Position numbers and translations under genes: made by a program. Below, piece by piece: positions 44,902 through 51,810 of a stretch of 64,000 bases of DNA. Each line of letters opens with the position of its first letter. Position 1 is the stretch's first letter. The notes beneath the pieces were generated by a model. It had not been told where the DNA came from. It worked only from the letters and a program-made list of their open reading frames with translations, and did not search any database. The DNA comes from an uncultured Bacteroidota bacterium (GTDB lineage Bacteria > Bacteroidota > Bacteroidia > Chitinophagales > Chitinophagaceae): positions 22,795-86,794 of the forward strand of contig CAINOI010000030.1 of NCBI GenBank assembly GCA_903851465.1, in the 5' to 3' direction.

Positions 44902-46206
44902 ATGCAAAAGGAACAAAAAAAATTTGGCTTATGGACAAGTACTTCTTTGGTACTTGGTACGATGATTGGTGCGGGTGTTTTTTTGATGCCTTCTGCCTTG
45001 GCTAGTTATGGAAGTATCAGTTTGATTGGGTGGTTATTTTCTTCATTGGGTGCGATTGTGATTGCAAAAGTATTTGCTAACATCAGTAAATTGATTCCTT
45101 CATCGGATGGGGGGCCTTATGCATTTGCAAAAGCAGGACTAGGTGATTTTGCTGGTTTTTTGATAGGATGGGGTTATTTGATTTCTGTTTGGACTACGAA
45201 TGCGGCAATTGCTGTTTCATTGGTAAGTGCAATGAGTACTTTCTTCCCTATACTCGCTCAAGATGCTAGCATCGCTTTAGCTACAGGGTTGGTTTTTCTT
45301 TGGTTACTTACTTGGGTGAATACTTTGGGTGTCATTGCTTCTGGCAGAGTTCAATTAATGACCACGATACTAAAAATAGTACCCCTAGTATTGGTAGCAA
45401 TTGGTGGACTTTTACTTTTAGATCCACAAAATTTACTACCATTTAATAAGAGTGGAACAAGCAGCTGGCAAGCCATTACTGCGACGACCACTTTAACCTT
45501 CTTTGCATTTTTAGGGATTGAATGTGCTACCATTCCTTCTAGTAGTGTAGACAATCCAGGACAAAATATATCCAAAGCAACGATGTTCGGTGTTTGGATT
45601 GCAGCGTCCATTTATATTTTTAGTACGATCTCCATCATGGGGATGATTCCAGCAAGTCAATTACAAGTTTCCATTACCCCATTTGCCGATGCTGCAGAAA
45701 AAATTTATGGACATGGTGCAAAATACTGGGTTAGTGCAGGCGCTGCTATTGCTGCATTTGGCGCATTAAATGGATTGATATTAGTGCAAGGACAAATGCC
45801 CTATGCGATGGCAAAGGATAAGTTATTTCCTGCATTTTTTGCGAAACAAAATCGCAAAGGGGTGCCTGCAAATGGTGTGATTGTATCTAGTATCATTATC
45901 ACTTTATTGATGTTCATGAACAATTCAAAAAATTTAGCCGGCCAATTTAAGTTGTTGATACTGCTCTCTACTTTTTTTACTTTGCTACCTTATTTATTTA
46001 CGACTGTATCTTATTTAATTGTTCGTGCAAAAGAAGCAACCACCTTCACTAAAACCAAAACGGTCACGGCAATCGTCTTAAGTGCCATCGCATTTTCTTT
46101 TTCTATGTGGATGTTGATTGGTTCAGGACAGGAAATTGTCTATTGGGGATTCATCATGTTGATGCTGGGTGTGCCCTTCTATGTTTATATGGTGTACAAA
46201 AAGTAA
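44902..46206 (+). CDS. APC-family amino acid permease (PotE/AdiC-like)
   Basis: GTMIGAGVFLMPS, GGPYAFA, FFAFLGIECA, about 12 TM segments. Confidence 0.92.
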   Translation: MQKEQKKFGLWTSTSLVLGTMIGAGVFLMPSALASYGSISLIGWLFSSLGAIVIAKVFANISKLIPSSDGGPYAFAKAGLGDFAGFLIGWGYLISVWTTNAAIAVSLVSAMSTFFPILAQDASIALATGLVFLWLLTWVNTLGVIASGRVQLMTTILKIVPLVLVAIGGLLLLDPQNLLPFNKSGTSSWQAITATTTLTFFAFLGIECATIPSSSVDNPGQNISKATMFGVWIAASIYIFSTISIMGMIPASQLQVSITPFADAAEKIYGHGAKYWVSAGAAIAAFGALNGLILVQGQMPYAMAKDKLFPAFFAKQNRKGVPANGVIVSSIIITLLMFMNNSKNLAGQFKLLILLSTFFTLLPYLFTTVSYLIVRAKEATTFTKTKTVTAIVLSAIAFSFSMWMLIGSGQEIVYWGFIMLMLGVPFYVYMVYKK

Positions 46207-46260
46207 GATCAAATTCGTATAAATTCATCAACAATATGGCTTTTATAATTGTTTAGCTTT

Positions 46261-46268
46261 TATATTCG
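46261..46268 (+). promoter_or_regulatory. -7 element variant TATATTCG for the small ORF-sulP-can operon
   Basis: TAnnTTCG 6 nt before the ATG at 46275. Confidence 0.55.
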
Positions 46269-46274
46269 CATGGT

Positions 46275-46595
46275 ATGAAAAAAAGGCTCATTGGTATTTT
46301 ATTGACTTTGGTGGTTGCCACACAGATTTTTCCTTTGGAAGGGCTCCGCTTTTGGGTTAATTTAATTGAAACCAATGGTCATTCTACAACAGCCACTTTA
46401 CTCGCTTTGGAGGAAGAAGAGGTTGAAGAAATTCAGATGAAAGTCAAGAACATGGAATCCAACCATTCAATGTATTTTGAATCCCAAACTGCATTGATGA
46501 TCATCGACTCCAATTATCCTATTATTACACATCTAGGCTCAGTGATTGATCGAAACAATCCTATACTTATTCCACCGCCCAATACGATTATTTAA
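46275..46595 (+). CDS. Small membrane-anchored protein ending ...PPPNTII, candidate regulatory uORF
   Basis: N-terminal hydrophobic helix, EEEEVEE patch, CCA-CCG-CCC codons at 46572-46580, four codons before the stop. Confidence 0.65.
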   Translation: MKKRLIGILLTLVVATQIFPLEGLRFWVNLIETNGHSTTATLLALEEEEVEEIQMKVKNMESNHSMYFESQTALMIIDSNYPIITHLGSVIDRNNPILIPPPNTII

Positions 46596-46716
46596 TTCGT
46601 ATCCTTATAACCTTTCTAATTACTGAAACAGAGGGTTATCATTCATCTATTTTTTTAAGTTAATTGCTACTTGGTACAACCTGTAGAAATTAATGTCATA
46701 TTATTAATAAATTCAA

Positions 46717-48228
46717 ATGAATTTAAGTCAACCAGCCCGTGGAATTAGTTTTGGGTATCTAAAAGAAGACCTTCCTGCCGGCTTAGTTGTTTTTTTAGTA
46801 GCGCTTCCTTTATGTTTAGGAATTGCTTTGGCATCGGGGGCGCCTTTGTTTTCTGGTATTATTGCAGGTATCGTTGGAGGTATCATTGTAGCATTCGCAA
46901 GTGGTTCCGCATTGAGCGTGAGTGGTCCAGCTGCAGGCCTTACTGTGATTGTCTTGAATGGTATCACCACATTAGGTTCCTATGATCATTTCTTAGTCGC
47001 AGTGGCTATAGCTGGCATTTTACAAATTATTTTAGGCTACTTAAAAGCAGGAGTGATTGGTTATTATTTTCCTTCTAGTGTCATCAAAGGAATGCTTGCA
47101 GCGATTGGTATTATTTTAATTTTAAAACAAATACCAGTAGCCATTGGCGTTAATAAAACAGCAAATATTTCCTATCATTATGGGTCGATCTTCATTGCAG
47201 CTTTTTCTATAGCAATCCTATTATTTTGGGAGTTACCAGCATTAAAAAAATACAGCTTTTTCAAGTTTGTTCCAGGCGCATTGATTGCTGTTTTGACTGG
47301 TGTTGCATTAAATGCTTTATTTAAAGTCTATCAGCCTGAATGGGCGTTAACAGCAAATGCTTTGGTTACCTTACCTGTAGCAAAAAATAGTAACGAGTTT
47401 TTTGGTCAATTTACATTGCCCAATTTTGCAGCATTGGGAAATTACCAAGTCTATGTCATAGCAGTGACTATTGCAATTATTGCAAGTATCGAAACTTTAT
47501 TAAGTACCGAAGCAGCGGATAAGTTAGATCCCTATAAAAGAGTCACACCAAGCAATCGTGAATTAAAAGCACAAGGTTTGGGGAATTTAATTTCGGGTTT
47601 AATTGGCGGATTGCCTATGACGGCAGTGATAGTTCGAACTTCTGCGAATGTGAATGCAGGTGCTAGAACAAAACTATCGGCCATATTCCATGGATTGTTA
47701 TTGCTAATTAGTGTGGTCGCATTTGCATCCCTCTTAAACCAAATCCCTTTGGCATGTTTGGCTGCTGTGTTATTGGTAGTCGGCTACAAATTGGCAAAGC
47801 TTAGTTTGTTTAAAGAAATGTATCAGCTAGGGTGGGAACAGTTTGTACCCTTTATGGTGACCATTATTGCAATTCAATTTAGCGACTTGTTAAAAGGGAT
47901 TGCCCTGGGTATGCTGGTAGCAGTTTTTTATATATTAAGGAACAATTTTAGACGGGATTACAAAATACACCATGCTAAAATAGCTGATGGCGGCGCTATT
48001 ACTATTAAGTTAGCTGAGCAAGTCACATTTATTAATAAAGGGAGTATCGCAAAAAAATTATCAGAAATACCCAATGGTACAAAAGTGATCATTGATGCGA
48101 GTCAATCCCATTATATAGACCTGGATGTCATTGAAATTATTCATAACTTCAATGCAACAGCAAATTTAAAAAATATTGACCTACAATTGGTAAATTTGCC
48201 TGAAAGGGCTAAGTCGGCTGGGCATTAG
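46717..48228 (+). CDS. SulP/SLC26 anion (probably bicarbonate) transporter with reduced STAS domain
   Basis: DLPAGLVVFLVALPLCLGIALASG, VSGPAAGL, NRELKAQGLGN, VRTSAN. Confidence 0.93.
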   Translation: MNLSQPARGISFGYLKEDLPAGLVVFLVALPLCLGIALASGAPLFSGIIAGIVGGIIVAFASGSALSVSGPAAGLTVIVLNGITTLGSYDHFLVAVAIAGILQIILGYLKAGVIGYYFPSSVIKGMLAAIGIILILKQIPVAIGVNKTANISYHYGSIFIAAFSIAILLFWELPALKKYSFFKFVPGALIAVLTGVALNALFKVYQPEWALTANALVTLPVAKNSNEFFGQFTLPNFAALGNYQVYVIAVTIAIIASIETLLSTEAADKLDPYKRVTPSNRELKAQGLGNLISGLIGGLPMTAVIVRTSANVNAGARTKLSAIFHGLLLLISVVAFASLLNQIPLACLAAVLLVVGYKLAKLSLFKEMYQLGWEQFVPFMVTIIAIQFSDLLKGIALGMLVAVFYILRNNFRRDYKIHHAKIADGGAITIKLAEQVTFINKGSIAKKLSEIPNGTKVIIDASQSHYIDLDVIEIIHNFNATANLKNIDLQLVNLPERAKSAGH

Positions 48229-48279
48229 ATTAAAAGTTAGATTAAGGTTTCATTCTTTTCAAAAATTAAAATAGTTAAA

Positions 48280-48912
48280 ATGGAAAAATCATATAAAAGA
48301 TTAATTGAAAATAACAAAACATGGGTCGCAGAACAGTTGCAATTAGACCCTGCCTTCTTTGAAAAATTATCAAATGGACAAACACCAGAATATTTATGGA
48401 TAGGTTGTTCGGACAGTAGGGTGCCTGCAGAATCCATTACAGGAACGGATCCAGGTGAAATGTTTGTACATCGTAATATCGCCAATATGGTGGTACATAG
48501 TGACATGAATATGTTGAGTGTATTATCTTACGCTGTAGAAGTGCTAAAGGTGAAACATGTGATTGTTTGCGGTCATTATGGTTGTGGCGGTGTGATGGCG
48601 GCAATGAAAAATCAACAATTTGGTTTAATTGACAATTGGTTAAGGCATATTAAAGATGTGTACAGATACCATCACAAAGAACTCGATGCCATTGAAGATG
48701 AGACTTTAAGAGCAAGAAGATTCGTAGAAGTGAATGTACAGGAGCAGGTACATGATCTGGGAAAGACATCTATTGTTCAAAATGCATGGAAAAGAGACCA
48801 ACCATTGCACTTACACGGATGGGTCTATGATATCAATGACGGTCTGATCAATGATTTAGGTGTGAACTTTACTTGTCCAAAAGATTTACATAATGTATAC
48901 CACCTTGATTAG
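48280..48912 (+). CDS. can: Beta-class carbonic anhydrase
   Basis: WIGCSDSRV, FVHRNIAN, CGHYGCGG zinc ligands, HGWVYD. Confidence 0.95.
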   Translation: MEKSYKRLIENNKTWVAEQLQLDPAFFEKLSNGQTPEYLWIGCSDSRVPAESITGTDPGEMFVHRNIANMVVHSDMNMLSVLSYAVEVLKVKHVIVCGHYGCGGVMAAMKNQQFGLIDNWLRHIKDVYRYHHKELDAIEDETLRARRFVEVNVQEQVHDLGKTSIVQNAWKRDQPLHLHGWVYDINDGLINDLGVNFTCPKDLHNVYHLD

Positions 48913-48928
48913 CAATAAAATATACTTT

Positions 48929-48961
48929 AAAATGGAGCGTTGAAAAACGCTCCATTTTTTT
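48929..48961. terminator. Intrinsic terminator after can
   Basis: AAAATGGAGCGTT-GAAA-AACGCTCCATTTT perfect 13-bp stem followed by a T tract. Confidence 0.9.
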
Positions 48962-48975
48962 GCACTTTATCCTTT

Positions 48976-49032
48976 GTTAATATTAAGTTCATATTGGCTT
49001 AACAATTTGGTAACATGAGTATTTGATATTTG
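48976..49032 (+). promoter_or_regulatory. Four-unit 11-bp-period repeat array (Pho-box-like) plus variant -7 element
   Basis: GTTAATA 48976, GTTCATA 48987, CTTAACA 48998, GGTAACA 49009; GATATTTG 49025-49032. Confidence 0.72.
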
Positions 49033-49053
49033 CCATACAAATAAAATCATATC

Positions 49054-51810
49054 GTGAAAAGGATACTACTATTTATAATTTGTTTTGTTGCAGCAGTTTC
49101 GGTTCAAGCGCAAAAAGCAAAATTGACAGGTAAGGTTACAAACGTAAAAAATGATGTTTTAGTTGGCGTTACACTAACTTTAAAATCGGATAAGAGCCAA
49201 GTTTCAAAAACAGATATCGAGGGAAGATTTAGTTTTAATATAGATATCAATAAAGCATATTCATTAGATTTATCTTATGTAGGTTACAAAGCAAAATCAA
49301 TTGATGTTACTGGTGCTACCACTGCTAACGAAGAGATCGTATTAGATGTATTATTAGAAGAAGCAGGAAAAAATTTAACGGATGTAGTGGTTTCTGCTAC
49401 AAGATCTACTAATAAAGGAGCTACGGATAATGCATTGATAGCTTATCAGAAAAATACCAATACGGTTGCTTCTGTAATTTCTGCAGAATCTATTAAGAGA
49501 AGTCCAGATAGAAACACTGCTGAAATCTTAAAAAGAACTCCAGGTGCATCTATCCAAGAAGGTAAATATATTATTGTAAGAGGTTTGGCGGATCGCTATA
49601 ACCAAGCGATGTTGAATGGTATTTTGTTAACAAGTACAGAGCCAGACAGAAAAACATTCTCATTTGATTTATTCCCTTCTCAAATCATTGACAATATCAT
49701 TATCAATAAAGCATTCGTTCCAGAGTTACCAGGTGAGTGGGCTGGAGGTTTAATTCAAGTAAATACAAAAGATGTTCCAACAAAGAACTTCTTTAATATT
49801 CAAATCGGTACTAGTGCTAATACATTAGTTACTGGAAAAGATTTCTTAAAAGACGAAGGCGGTAAAACAGATTATTTAGGTTTAGATGATGGTACAAGAT
49901 CTATGCCTGCTGGATATACTACAAAATCAAATTTTGATACATCTAGTTTAGCTACAAAAGCAGAATTGGGTAAAAGAATGTCAAATAACTGGTCTCCAGT
50001 GACAGTTACTGCTAAGCCAAATGTAAGCTTACAAATGAATGGTGGTTTTAGCGGTACTTTATGGGGTAAAAAAATAGGTGGTATTATTGGAGTAAACTAT
50101 GCGAATGCATACCGTTTCCAAGATAATGTCAACAATCAAAATGGTATTGTTGGTAATACAATCAATCCAATTATTGAATTAAAAGACAAAAAGTATATTA
50201 ACGATATTAATATGGGTGCTATTGCTGGATTGTCTATGTTCATAAACCCTTTGAATAAAATTAGTTATAAAGCAATTGTAAACGTTAAAACAGCAAATTC
50301 ATTCAATTCTAGAGCTGGTAAAGATTATTCTAGACAAGATTTAGTGAAAGGTAACGAATTTGTATTTGGACAAAATGTTTTCTTTACCAATCAATTGAAT
50401 GGTGAGCATAGCTTATCTCAAAAATTAAAATTCAATTGGTATGGTGCATTCAATATATTGGATAGCTATAGCCCGGATCAAAGAAGAATTTTATATACTA
50501 AGAGTGTAGCTGGTACAGATCCTTATGTATTGAATATTTCAAACACTTTATCTCAACAATCAGGTAGCCGTGTATTCCAATCTTTATCTGATTATATCTA
50601 TACAGCTGGTGGTGATTTAACTTTAAAAGTAAAGCAACAAACCATCAAAACAGGTTACATGATGCAAATTAAAGATCGTATGTATGACGCTCAATTATTT
50701 GCTGTTTACTTGCCAAGAGATAATGCTGAATTAAGAGGCTTAGATGCGGCTTCAGCTTTTGTACCTCAAAATTTTGGAAATGGTACAGATAATAAATTTG
50801 CTTTCAACTCTATTCAAAATAGAAACTTCAGATACATGGCCAACACCATTTTAAATGCTGGTTATGTTCAATTTGATAATAAATTATCAGATGGTTTAAG
50901 AGTGGTATGGGGACTGAGAGTAGAAAACTTTGACCAATTAGTAGGTTCAGTTAAGAAATGGGATGATCGCCATACCTATTCAAAAGTAACTGACTTCTTA
51001 CCTGGTGTAAATGCTACAATCAAATTAGGTCAAAAATCAAACTTAAGATTGACAGGTTCTCAAACTGTAATTCGTCCAGAATTAAGAGAGTTATCTAAAT
51101 TAACCATCTATGATTTTGATTTAAACGCAGCAGTATCAGGTGAACCAAATTTAAAAAGAACAAAAATTACCAATTTAGACTTTAGATATGAATTGTATCC
51201 AGGTGCTGGAGAAATGTTTACAGTGGGTGTATTCTACAAAAACTTTGATAACGCTATTGAAAGCATTTACTATGAAGGTTCTGGAGGATCAAGTTTATTT
51301 ACTTATCAAAATGTAGCTAAGGCGACTGCGTTTGGTTTTGAAGTAGAAGGTCGTAAAAAATTATCTACTAGATTTACTTTACAAGCCAACGGTTCTTATA
51401 TCAATTCAAAAATTGAAGATGCTGCGCTTAAAGTAAGCAGATCTTTACAAGGTCAGTCTCCGTATTTGATTAACGCTGGTCTATTATATGATGTAGTAGA
51501 GAAAGGATTTAACATGACAGCATTATTTAACCAAGTAGGTAAAAGAATTTATCTAGTGGGAGATGCATTTGGTGCAGGTTCACCAGATGTATTTGAAAAC
51601 CCAAGAGCATTGGTGGATTTCCAAATCAGTAAAAAGTTTGCTGAGAACAAAGCTGAAATTAAATTTACCATTTCTGATATCTTGAATCAAAGACAAATTT
51701 TCTATCAAAACAATAACAGCAATACAGATTATGATAAGTCTAAAGATGCTATTCGTTTCTCTAGAAAATTCGGTACAACTTTTGGTATTACACTTAACTA
51801 CACATTATAA
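49054..51810 (+). CDS. TonB-dependent receptor with N-terminal CarboxypepD_reg-like domain (GTG start)
   Basis: IVRGLADRYN, FDLFPS, PELPGEWAGGLIQVNT plug motifs; IRPELREL; terminal LNYTL. Confidence 0.92.
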   Translation: MKRILLFIICFVAAVSVQAQKAKLTGKVTNVKNDVLVGVTLTLKSDKSQVSKTDIEGRFSFNIDINKAYSLDLSYVGYKAKSIDVTGATTANEEIVLDVLLEEAGKNLTDVVVSATRSTNKGATDNALIAYQKNTNTVASVISAESIKRSPDRNTAEILKRTPGASIQEGKYIIVRGLADRYNQAMLNGILLTSTEPDRKTFSFDLFPSQIIDNIIINKAFVPELPGEWAGGLIQVNTKDVPTKNFFNIQIGTSANTLVTGKDFLKDEGGKTDYLGLDDGTRSMPAGYTTKSNFDTSSLATKAELGKRMSNNWSPVTVTAKPNVSLQMNGGFSGTLWGKKIGGIIGVNYANAYRFQDNVNNQNGIVGNTINPIIELKDKKYINDINMGAIAGLSMFINPLNKISYKAIVNVKTANSFNSRAGKDYSRQDLVKGNEFVFGQNVFFTNQLNGEHSLSQKLKFNWYGAFNILDSYSPDQRRILYTKSVAGTDPYVLNISNTLSQQSGSRVFQSLSDYIYTAGGDLTLKVKQQTIKTGYMMQIKDRMYDAQLFAVYLPRDNAELRGLDAASAFVPQNFGNGTDNKFAFNSIQNRNFRYMANTILNAGYVQFDNKLSDGLRVVWGLRVENFDQLVGSVKKWDDRHTYSKVTDFLPGVNATIKLGQKSNLRLTGSQTVIRPELRELSKLTIYDFDLNAAVSGEPNLKRTKITNLDFRYELYPGAGEMFTVGVFYKNFDNAIESIYYEGSGGSSLFTYQNVAKATAFGFEVEGRKKLSTRFTLQANGSYINSKIEDAALKVSRSLQGQSPYLINAGLLYDVVEKGFNMTALFNQVGKRIYLVGDAFGAGSPDVFENPRALVDFQISKKFAENKAEIKFTISDILNQRQIFYQNNNSNTDYDKSKDAIRFSRKFGTTFGITLNYTL

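Follow-up and report, generated by a model that had tools for sequence, protein, structure and literature searches.

A small membrane-anchored gene ending in Pro-Pro-Pro-Asn precedes a bicarbonate-transporter and carbonic-anhydrase operon in two orders of Bacteroidia and has the layout of a ribosome-pausing leader

A small open reading frame upstream of sulP

Why does a probable bicarbonate transporter operon in a freshwater Chitinophagaceae bacterium begin with a short gene that encodes a membrane helix and ends in a polyproline motif? The gene is located in a 64,000-nucleotide stretch of contig CAINOI010000030.1 (assembly GCA_903851465.1, positions 22,795 to 86,794), here called the window. 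It lies directly upstream of genes encoding a SulP-family transporter and a beta-class carbonic anhydrase (CA). A first-pass annotation, made from the sequence alone, described a 106-aa ORF as the first gene after a promoter, with an N-terminal hydrophobic helix, an acidic patch (EEEEVEE) and ILIPPP four codons before the stop, followed by an imperfect hairpin, a T run and sulP. It proposed a ribosome-arrest device similar to SecM, RAPP-type peptides and DUF2946/CruR, which could tune bicarbonate or anion uptake to pH, CO2 or secretion status.

Inspection of the sequence showed that what had been observed at this locus is correct in its details. The encoded peptide reads MKKRLIGILLTLVVATQIFPLEGL...EEEEVEE...PILIPPPNTII*, and in longer excerpts MKKRLIGILLTLVVATQIFPLEGLRFW...LALEEEEVEEIQMKVKNMESNHSMYFE...HLGSVIDRNNPILIPPPNTII. 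The most hydrophobic window of 17 residues has a mean Kyte-Doolittle value of 2.27. The positions of all features are collected in Table 1. The proposed interpretation is only partly supported, as outlined in the following sections.

Table 1. Features of the candidate leader gene and its surroundings, in window coordinates
Position	Strand	Feature	Remarks
44902..46206	+	Amino-acid permease gene	Upstream neighbour
46261..46268	+	Bacteroidota -7 promoter box-like TATATTCG	Consensus TAnnTTTG; 6 nt before the ATG
46270..46278		Three-codon mini-frame ATG GTA TGA	Overlaps the start codon of the leader out of frame; not conserved in relatives
46275..46595	+	Candidate leader ORF, 106 aa	Single-pass membrane peptide of a new family; TAA stop at 46593-46595
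46287..46346	+	N-terminal basic residues, then TM or signal-anchor helix	Residues ~5-24; helix ends in the conserved TQ(V/I)FP motif
46410..46442	+	Acidic patch EEEEVEE (E46-E52) and invariant K56	EEEEVEE at 46410-46430; patch 50-56 residues upstream of P102
46566..46579 with 46742..46752		Possible pairing of the PPP-coding stretch with sulP codons 10-12	RNAduplex -16.6 kcal/mol, z -2.3
46572..46583	+	PPPN (P100-P102, N103), candidate ribosome pause site	PPP codons CCA CCG CCC at 46572-46580; then N T I I and the stop; PPP 5-7 residues from the end
46596..46716	+	Spacer, 121 nt	Not a canonical terminator
46607..46639		Hairpin	9 pairs, 15-nt loop
46650..46656		T7 run	Starts 10 nt after the stem
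46659..46694		Hairpin	25-45 nt upstream of the sulP ATG
46717..48228	+	sulP, SulP-family anion (probable bicarbonate) transporter	Sulfate_transp (1.1e-51) plus STAS domain
48280..48912	+	can, beta-class carbonic anhydrase	NF007756, 273 bits, above its cut-off

Selection on the peptide and family assignment

The ORF is a real coding gene under selection, and far more than a chance reading frame. A homology search of metagenomes revealed 181 homologues of 99-109 aa, recorded as 'hypothetical protein', although one JGI record names a 109-aa homologue (P0046) 'NAD-specific glutamate dehydrogenase', which is evidently a mis-annotation. An exhaustive HMMER search over 1.84 billion representatives found only 15 clusters at 50% identity. 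The hosts are recorded as Sediminibacterium or Chitinophagaceae MAGs. Among nine close relatives dN/dS is 0.15 overall, and selection is modular, with values of 0.014 for the acidic helix (residues 44-69), 0.035 for the C-terminal region (86-103), 0.18 for the N-terminal/TM region (1-27) and 0.4-0.57 for the two linkers (28-43 and 70-85), whose length is constant. The proline codons vary synonymously, so the peptide is selected rather than the RNA.

Scans against Pfam and NCBIfam assigned neither the window ORF nor 14 relatives from three lineages to any family. The only weak hits (NprX/PapR) matched the N-terminal hydrophobic segment, and a reading as a peptide pheromone was rejected. There was no hit to DUF2946 (PF11162) at E<=1 for any of these sequences, and the window protein contains no Cys and no Cys/His metal-binding motif of the CxxxC or His-rich type, its conserved elements being EEEEVEE and K56. 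Membership of DUF2946, one of the groups named in the first-pass annotation, is therefore not supported. Cleavage by signal peptidase according to the Bacteroidota Q-rule at TQ was also rejected, because the -1 residue is F, I or L in many relatives. An AlphaFold2 model built on the family alignment (pLDDT 70, pTM 0.25) predicts a TM helix (2-18), helices 21-33 and 38-78 and a disordered tail (86-106) that includes PPPN, without a globular fold.

Gene context and distribution

In every locus where the neighbouring genes could be read, homologues in Sediminibacterium-like genomes are the first gene of an inorganic-carbon operon, whatever gene comes next (loci are numbered with L and genomes with G). 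The order is leader-SulP-CA in the window and in L010, L011 and L025, leader-DabA-DabB-SulP-CA in L013 and L071/L074 (genomes G020 and G012), and leader-SulP-DabA-DabB in L016 and L017. The gene thus stays promoter-proximal even where dabAB is inserted between it and sulP. One SulP orthologue with 72% identity (L072 649-2154, G009:C86) stands alone, with neither the leader ORF nor a carbonic anhydrase, and is followed by a methyltransferase gene.

A search of 401 genomes of the order with a narrow profile (A1), built from Sediminibacterium-clade sequences alone, returned nothing outside the genus, and the family appeared to be lineage-restricted. However, inspection of the ORFs upstream of more distant SulP genes (45-56% identity) revealed the same architecture in other genera. 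A broader profile (A3) then found full-length hits in about 37 of the 401 genomes. The small ORF was recovered in 29 of the 30 loci returned (L075-L104, none in L085), and all 29 lie 22-264 nt upstream of a SulP gene on the same strand, across Chitinophagales genera. At phylum level A3 found nothing outside the order, and a second order of the class was reached only by looking upstream of SulP genes. Of 31 SulP loci sampled around genome G642, which belongs to this second order, inferred to be Flavobacteriales, 26 carry a 92-117 aa TM ORF ending in [I/F/V]-x-PPP[N/E/D]-xx-stop. An hhalign comparison of the Sediminibacterium family with the second-order family gave an E-value of 3.4e-5, with EEE, K, D and PPP aligned at equal spacing. 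A beta-CA gene lies next to sulP on the same strand in the window and is adjacent to sulP in 17 of 17 loci sampled from both orders, with DabA following in two of them.

Conservation of the diprolyl motif

Conservation of the proline motif had been named beforehand as one of the points on which the arrest hypothesis could fail, and the motif is conserved. In 49 representatives from the two orders, sharing less than 60% identity, PP is invariant, while most of the rest of the sequence diverges beyond the reach of the profile built from the Sediminibacterium clade. PP is also invariant in alignments A2 and A3. In A3 the only invariant columns are M1 and the two prolines, and A2 contains no conserved stretch of 7-10 columns. 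Among the 49 representatives the median length is 100 aa, the centre of the TM helix lies a median of 82 residues before PP, and acidic residues peak 48-55 residues before PP (median centre 52, IQR 50.5-57.7), followed by a Lys-rich position. A hydrophobic pair, and often an acidic residue at -5, precedes PP. PP or PPP is followed by N, D or E (rarely K, Q or I) and then by 1-6 more residues, so that, counted from the second proline, 2-7 residues remain before the stop. The tail varies in both length and sequence. A dabA-linked member of the family in genome G012 (L074 426-713) ends in FIPPIFS*, with Asn replaced by Ile, which shows that only the diprolyl is strictly kept.

PPN, PPD and PPP are among the PPX motifs with the highest EF-P-dependent pause scores in E. 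coli (PMC13602936), and PPD and PPN occurred only in the pausing set of a further study (PMC4140641). The residue that follows PP in nearly all relatives, N, D or E, is thus of the strong-pause class, and PPPN in the window meets the description of a diprolyl followed by a strong-pause residue (P, N, D, G or W). PPP is rare in the genome analysed here, with 27 occurrences in 1463 ORFs of at least 150 aa, and the leader is the only ORF in this genome that combines an N-terminal TM helix with a C-terminal PPP[NDE]. The genome also encodes EF-P, which normally relieves PPP pauses.

Promoter and RNA structure

The location of the -7 box-like sequence TATATTCG is consistent with the leader being the first gene after a promoter. 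A box with at most one mismatch ends 4-8 nt before the start codon in 29 of 45 representative loci. As the box occupies -12..-5 in Flavobacterium (PMC6847099), the mRNA is inferred to be leaderless or to have a leader of 1-2 nt, whereas leaderless mRNAs make up only about 5.5% in F. psychrophilum (PMC9723704). A sigma-70 promoter and terminator scan, the promoter model of which is the wrong type for this phylum, found no terminator-like site in 45800-49200.

Although the hairpin and the T run after the ORF are present, they are not supported as a conserved terminator or attenuator. The fold of 46560-46730 is no better than that of shuffled sequences (z -1.08). The first hairpin has positional counterparts of different sequence in relatives, is deleted in one of them (L031), and is absent from the 38-nt, unstructured spacer preceding dabA. 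The second hairpin is stable and is kept at the same place in close relatives (L029 and L010, with a perfect ~16-bp stem in L029), although its sequence differs. It has no U tract after it and may be a processing or stability element.

In several lineages (L130, L115, L125, L050, L047 and L025) the minimum-energy fold closes the whole spacer with a long helix, which pairs the last codons and stop codon of the leader with the bases just before the sulP ATG. This is the layout of SecM, MifM and CutF. Across 39 representative loci, 17 have at least 5 expected pairs, but swapping leaders between loci (15 swaps per locus) lowered the mean only marginally, from 5.4 to 3.7 pairs (p=0.05), in part because any PPP-coding end pairs with G-rich start regions. 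In the clade of the window the pairing is absent (0.27 expected pairs, against 0.8 in swapped controls), and forcing the ribosome footprint to be single-stranded does not change the predicted accessibility of the sulP start (0.53 to 0.46, relatives unchanged). An RNAduplex test of the stall region against the sulP start gave a mean z of -0.19. The pairing with sulP codons 10-12 seen in the window is absent from its closest relatives and is probably due to chance.

Possible role of the leader peptide

We consider it somewhat more likely than not that the ORF is a CutF/MifM-like nascent-chain pausing leader of an inorganic-carbon uptake operon (leader-sulP-can). In this view, the transcript starts at or 1-2 nt before the AUG, and the nascent peptide is targeted to the membrane by its N-terminal helix. 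Peptide-bond formation would slow when the ribosome reaches PPPN. At that moment the TM helix would already be inserted, and the acidic patch would lie about 50 residues from the peptidyl-transferase centre, that is, in or at the translocon. The length of the pause would therefore depend on what happens to the exported part of the chain, and the paused ribosome would set the expression of sulP-can. In other lineages it could do this by opening the helix between the last leader codons and the sulP start region. In the clade of the window no such route is visible in the RNA, and membrane tethering of the operon mRNA, or effects on transcription or mRNA stability, are possibilities.

This reading is supported by the promoter-proximal position, the membrane targeting, the rapidly diverging body of fixed length and the invariant strong-pause motif a few codons before the stop. 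Our analysis demonstrates that the gene is real and selected as a peptide, that it occupies this operon position, and that the TM helix, acidic patch, fixed spacing, PP[NDE] and closeness to the stop are conserved across the class, whereas pausing, action in cis, the signal sensed (pH, CO2 or secretion) and the output are inferred from sequence alone. The variable spacer length, the presence of EF-P and the absence of an RNA link in this clade speak against the hypothesis, as do the only marginal advantage of native over swapped leaders across the family and the SulP orthologue (G009) that lacks both the leader and CA. In addition, the juxtamembrane motif and the acidic helix are conserved more strongly than a plain arrest peptide needs, which also fits a mature protein with a function of its own.

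A serious, though less likely, alternative is that the gene encodes a mature small single-pass membrane protein, acting in trans as an accessory or regulatory partner of SulP or of the SulP-CA metabolon, with PPP[N/D/E] as a structural or binding motif. This is supported by the strict co-occurrence with one SulP clade across a class, by the strong purifying selection on the acidic helix and on the juxtamembrane motif TQ(V/I)FP / Q(I/V)LP.Q.G, and by the same lack of an RNA link and presence of EF-P. The acidic helix and juxtamembrane motif could be the sensing part of a leader, but fit such a partner equally well. On the other hand, the middle of the protein diverges beyond HMM reach while PP plus N/D/E near the stop stays fixed, and the variable tail shows that the C-terminus itself is not the motif. 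The predicted structure is non-globular, the gene remains promoter-proximal when dabAB intervenes, and one SulP orthologue is found without it. No small subunit is known for SulP/SLC26 transporters.

It is unlikely, but possible, that the peptide is a pause-assisted membrane tether, which holds the ribosome-mRNA complex at the translocon so that the polytopic SulP (and DabB) are translated at the membrane, as a constitutive biogenesis aid rather than a sensor. This would explain why no conserved RNA structure or spacer length is needed, why the distance from TM to PP is constrained and why the next genes encode membrane proteins. It does not explain the acidic patch and invariant Lys, why only this operon in the genome has such a leader, or why soluble DabA can be the next gene, and the helices to the sulP start in other lineages point to regulation. 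Classical attenuation through the hairpin and T run is very unlikely, given the results of the terminator scan, the gap between stem and T run, the fold score and the lack of conservation.

A more speculative version of the leader hypothesis, which we regard as unlikely on present evidence, is that the peptide is a co-translational sensor of membrane potential and/or periplasmic pH. When the ribosome pauses at PPP[N/D/E], the conserved Glu cluster, often with a nearby His or Lys, would lie about 50 residues from the peptidyl-transferase centre, the distance at which an Asp5 segment in SecYEG feels a membrane-potential-dependent pulling force in E. coli (Ismail et al. 2015, as analysed in bioRxiv 10.1101/310698). 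The constant spacing could also simply reflect shared ancestry. If correct, pause release, and through it expression of the ion-gradient-driven bicarbonate transporter, carbonic anhydrase and DAB pump, would report the energetic or pH state of the membrane. This would be a natural voltage-sensing arrest peptide and the first arrest-peptide switch described in the Bacteroidota, which lack Shine-Dalgarno sequences. The fixed spacing makes the idea of charge-driven pulling in the translocon directly testable.

Flavobacteria and Chitinophagales are dominant aquatic heterotrophs, and their SulP-CA (and DAB) genes are the usual candidates for anaplerotic bicarbonate uptake. No regulator gene is linked to these operons, and a class-wide, leaderless, membrane-targeted polyproline leader would be that regulator. 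It would extend nascent-chain sensing from secretion and copper homeostasis to central carbon supply, and provide a test case for how a ribosome pause is read out in a phylum without Shine-Dalgarno sequences. As the family is unannotated, it is invisible in current genome annotation.

Comparison with known leader peptides

Full-text literature searches found no description of a leader or uORF preceding SulP-CA or DAB genes. The screen for CutF-like proteins in PMC9973294 includes many Bacteroidota proteins but reports only metal-related neighbours, and the text of its supplements contains no SulP or CA neighbour entries, although this does not tell whether the present family is among the CutF-like proteins listed.

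CutF of Rhodobacter capsulatus (cutFOG; DUF2946 'CutF-like' proteins; PMC9973294, bioRxiv 10.1101/2025.02.05.636593) is likewise about 100-120 aa and the first gene of its operon, with an N-terminal Sec-targeting hydrophobic segment, a conserved sensing element in the exported part and a C-terminal PPP shortly before the stop. CutF acts only in cis, and its PPP stall overrides EF-P. In some lineages of the present family a helix joins the uORF end to the start of the next gene, as in cutF-cutO, but the shielding stem-loop is not predicted in the clade of the window. There is no sequence or Pfam relationship, the metal motif is replaced by an acidic patch plus Lys, and the putative target is inorganic-carbon uptake rather than copper. 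The host phylum lacks Shine-Dalgarno sequences, the mRNA appears to be leaderless, and stalling has been inferred only.

CruR (Bp2923) of Bordetella pertussis is an upstream ORF with a C-terminal proline-containing stalling-like motif that controls a downstream TonB-dependent transporter post-transcriptionally, with a long spacer (162 nt) lacking an obvious RBS-shielding stem (as summarised in PMC9973294). However, CruR is a DUF2946 copper sensor, and its action is independent of a signal sequence and goes through Rho termination. Here the TM helix is conserved, and several family members have spacers too short (22-50 nt) for Rho loading.

The uA_LPPP arrest peptides of Planctomycetota (PMC10987492) have an N-terminal signal sequence, a hydrophobic residue plus PPP within the last 15 residues and an otherwise poorly conserved sequence, and toeprinting places the third codon of the motif in the P site. 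They are located upstream of secA and monitor secretion, whereas the present family lies upstream of SulP-CA and has a conserved acidic patch and a fixed length. MifM of Bacillus subtilis, the yidC2 leader, is about 95 aa with an N-terminal TM anchor, and its arrest near the C-terminus involves acidic residues and is released by membrane insertion. MifM regulates a membrane insertase paralogue through an SD-sequestering hairpin and has no polyproline, whereas the putative target here is a transporter operon. As in the peptides that monitor Sec or YidC (SecM, MifM, VemP, the RAPP/RQH family and uA_LPPP), an N-terminal TM segment is combined with a conserved C-terminal motif and a poorly conserved middle, but the gene is not encoded directly upstream of secA, secDF or yidC. 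The downstream genes encode SulP, beta-CA or DabA/DabB, and a reading as a Sec/YidC monitor was rejected because the target genes differ.

Variation in flanking genes and copy number

The upstream neighbour of the leader differs between genomes. In many relatives the leader is transcribed divergently from a small CBU_0592-like membrane protein gene followed by a CLC-type chloride channel (L013 9531-11035; L023 1530-3037; L025 5343-6850; L074 826-2357), a pair that is replaced in the window by the amino-acid permease. A CLC channel next to a bicarbonate operon may be functionally linked through anion or pH balance. Two tandem copies of a PPPNC-type leader ORF lie upstream of one SulP-CA pair at G320:C15:593968-594642 (L083, L154). 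Furthermore, one MAG (JBEDDG01) carries two diverged copies of the leader on different contigs (L036 and L039), one of which ends in PPPK instead of PPPN, and this may be the result of strain mixture or of a true duplication.
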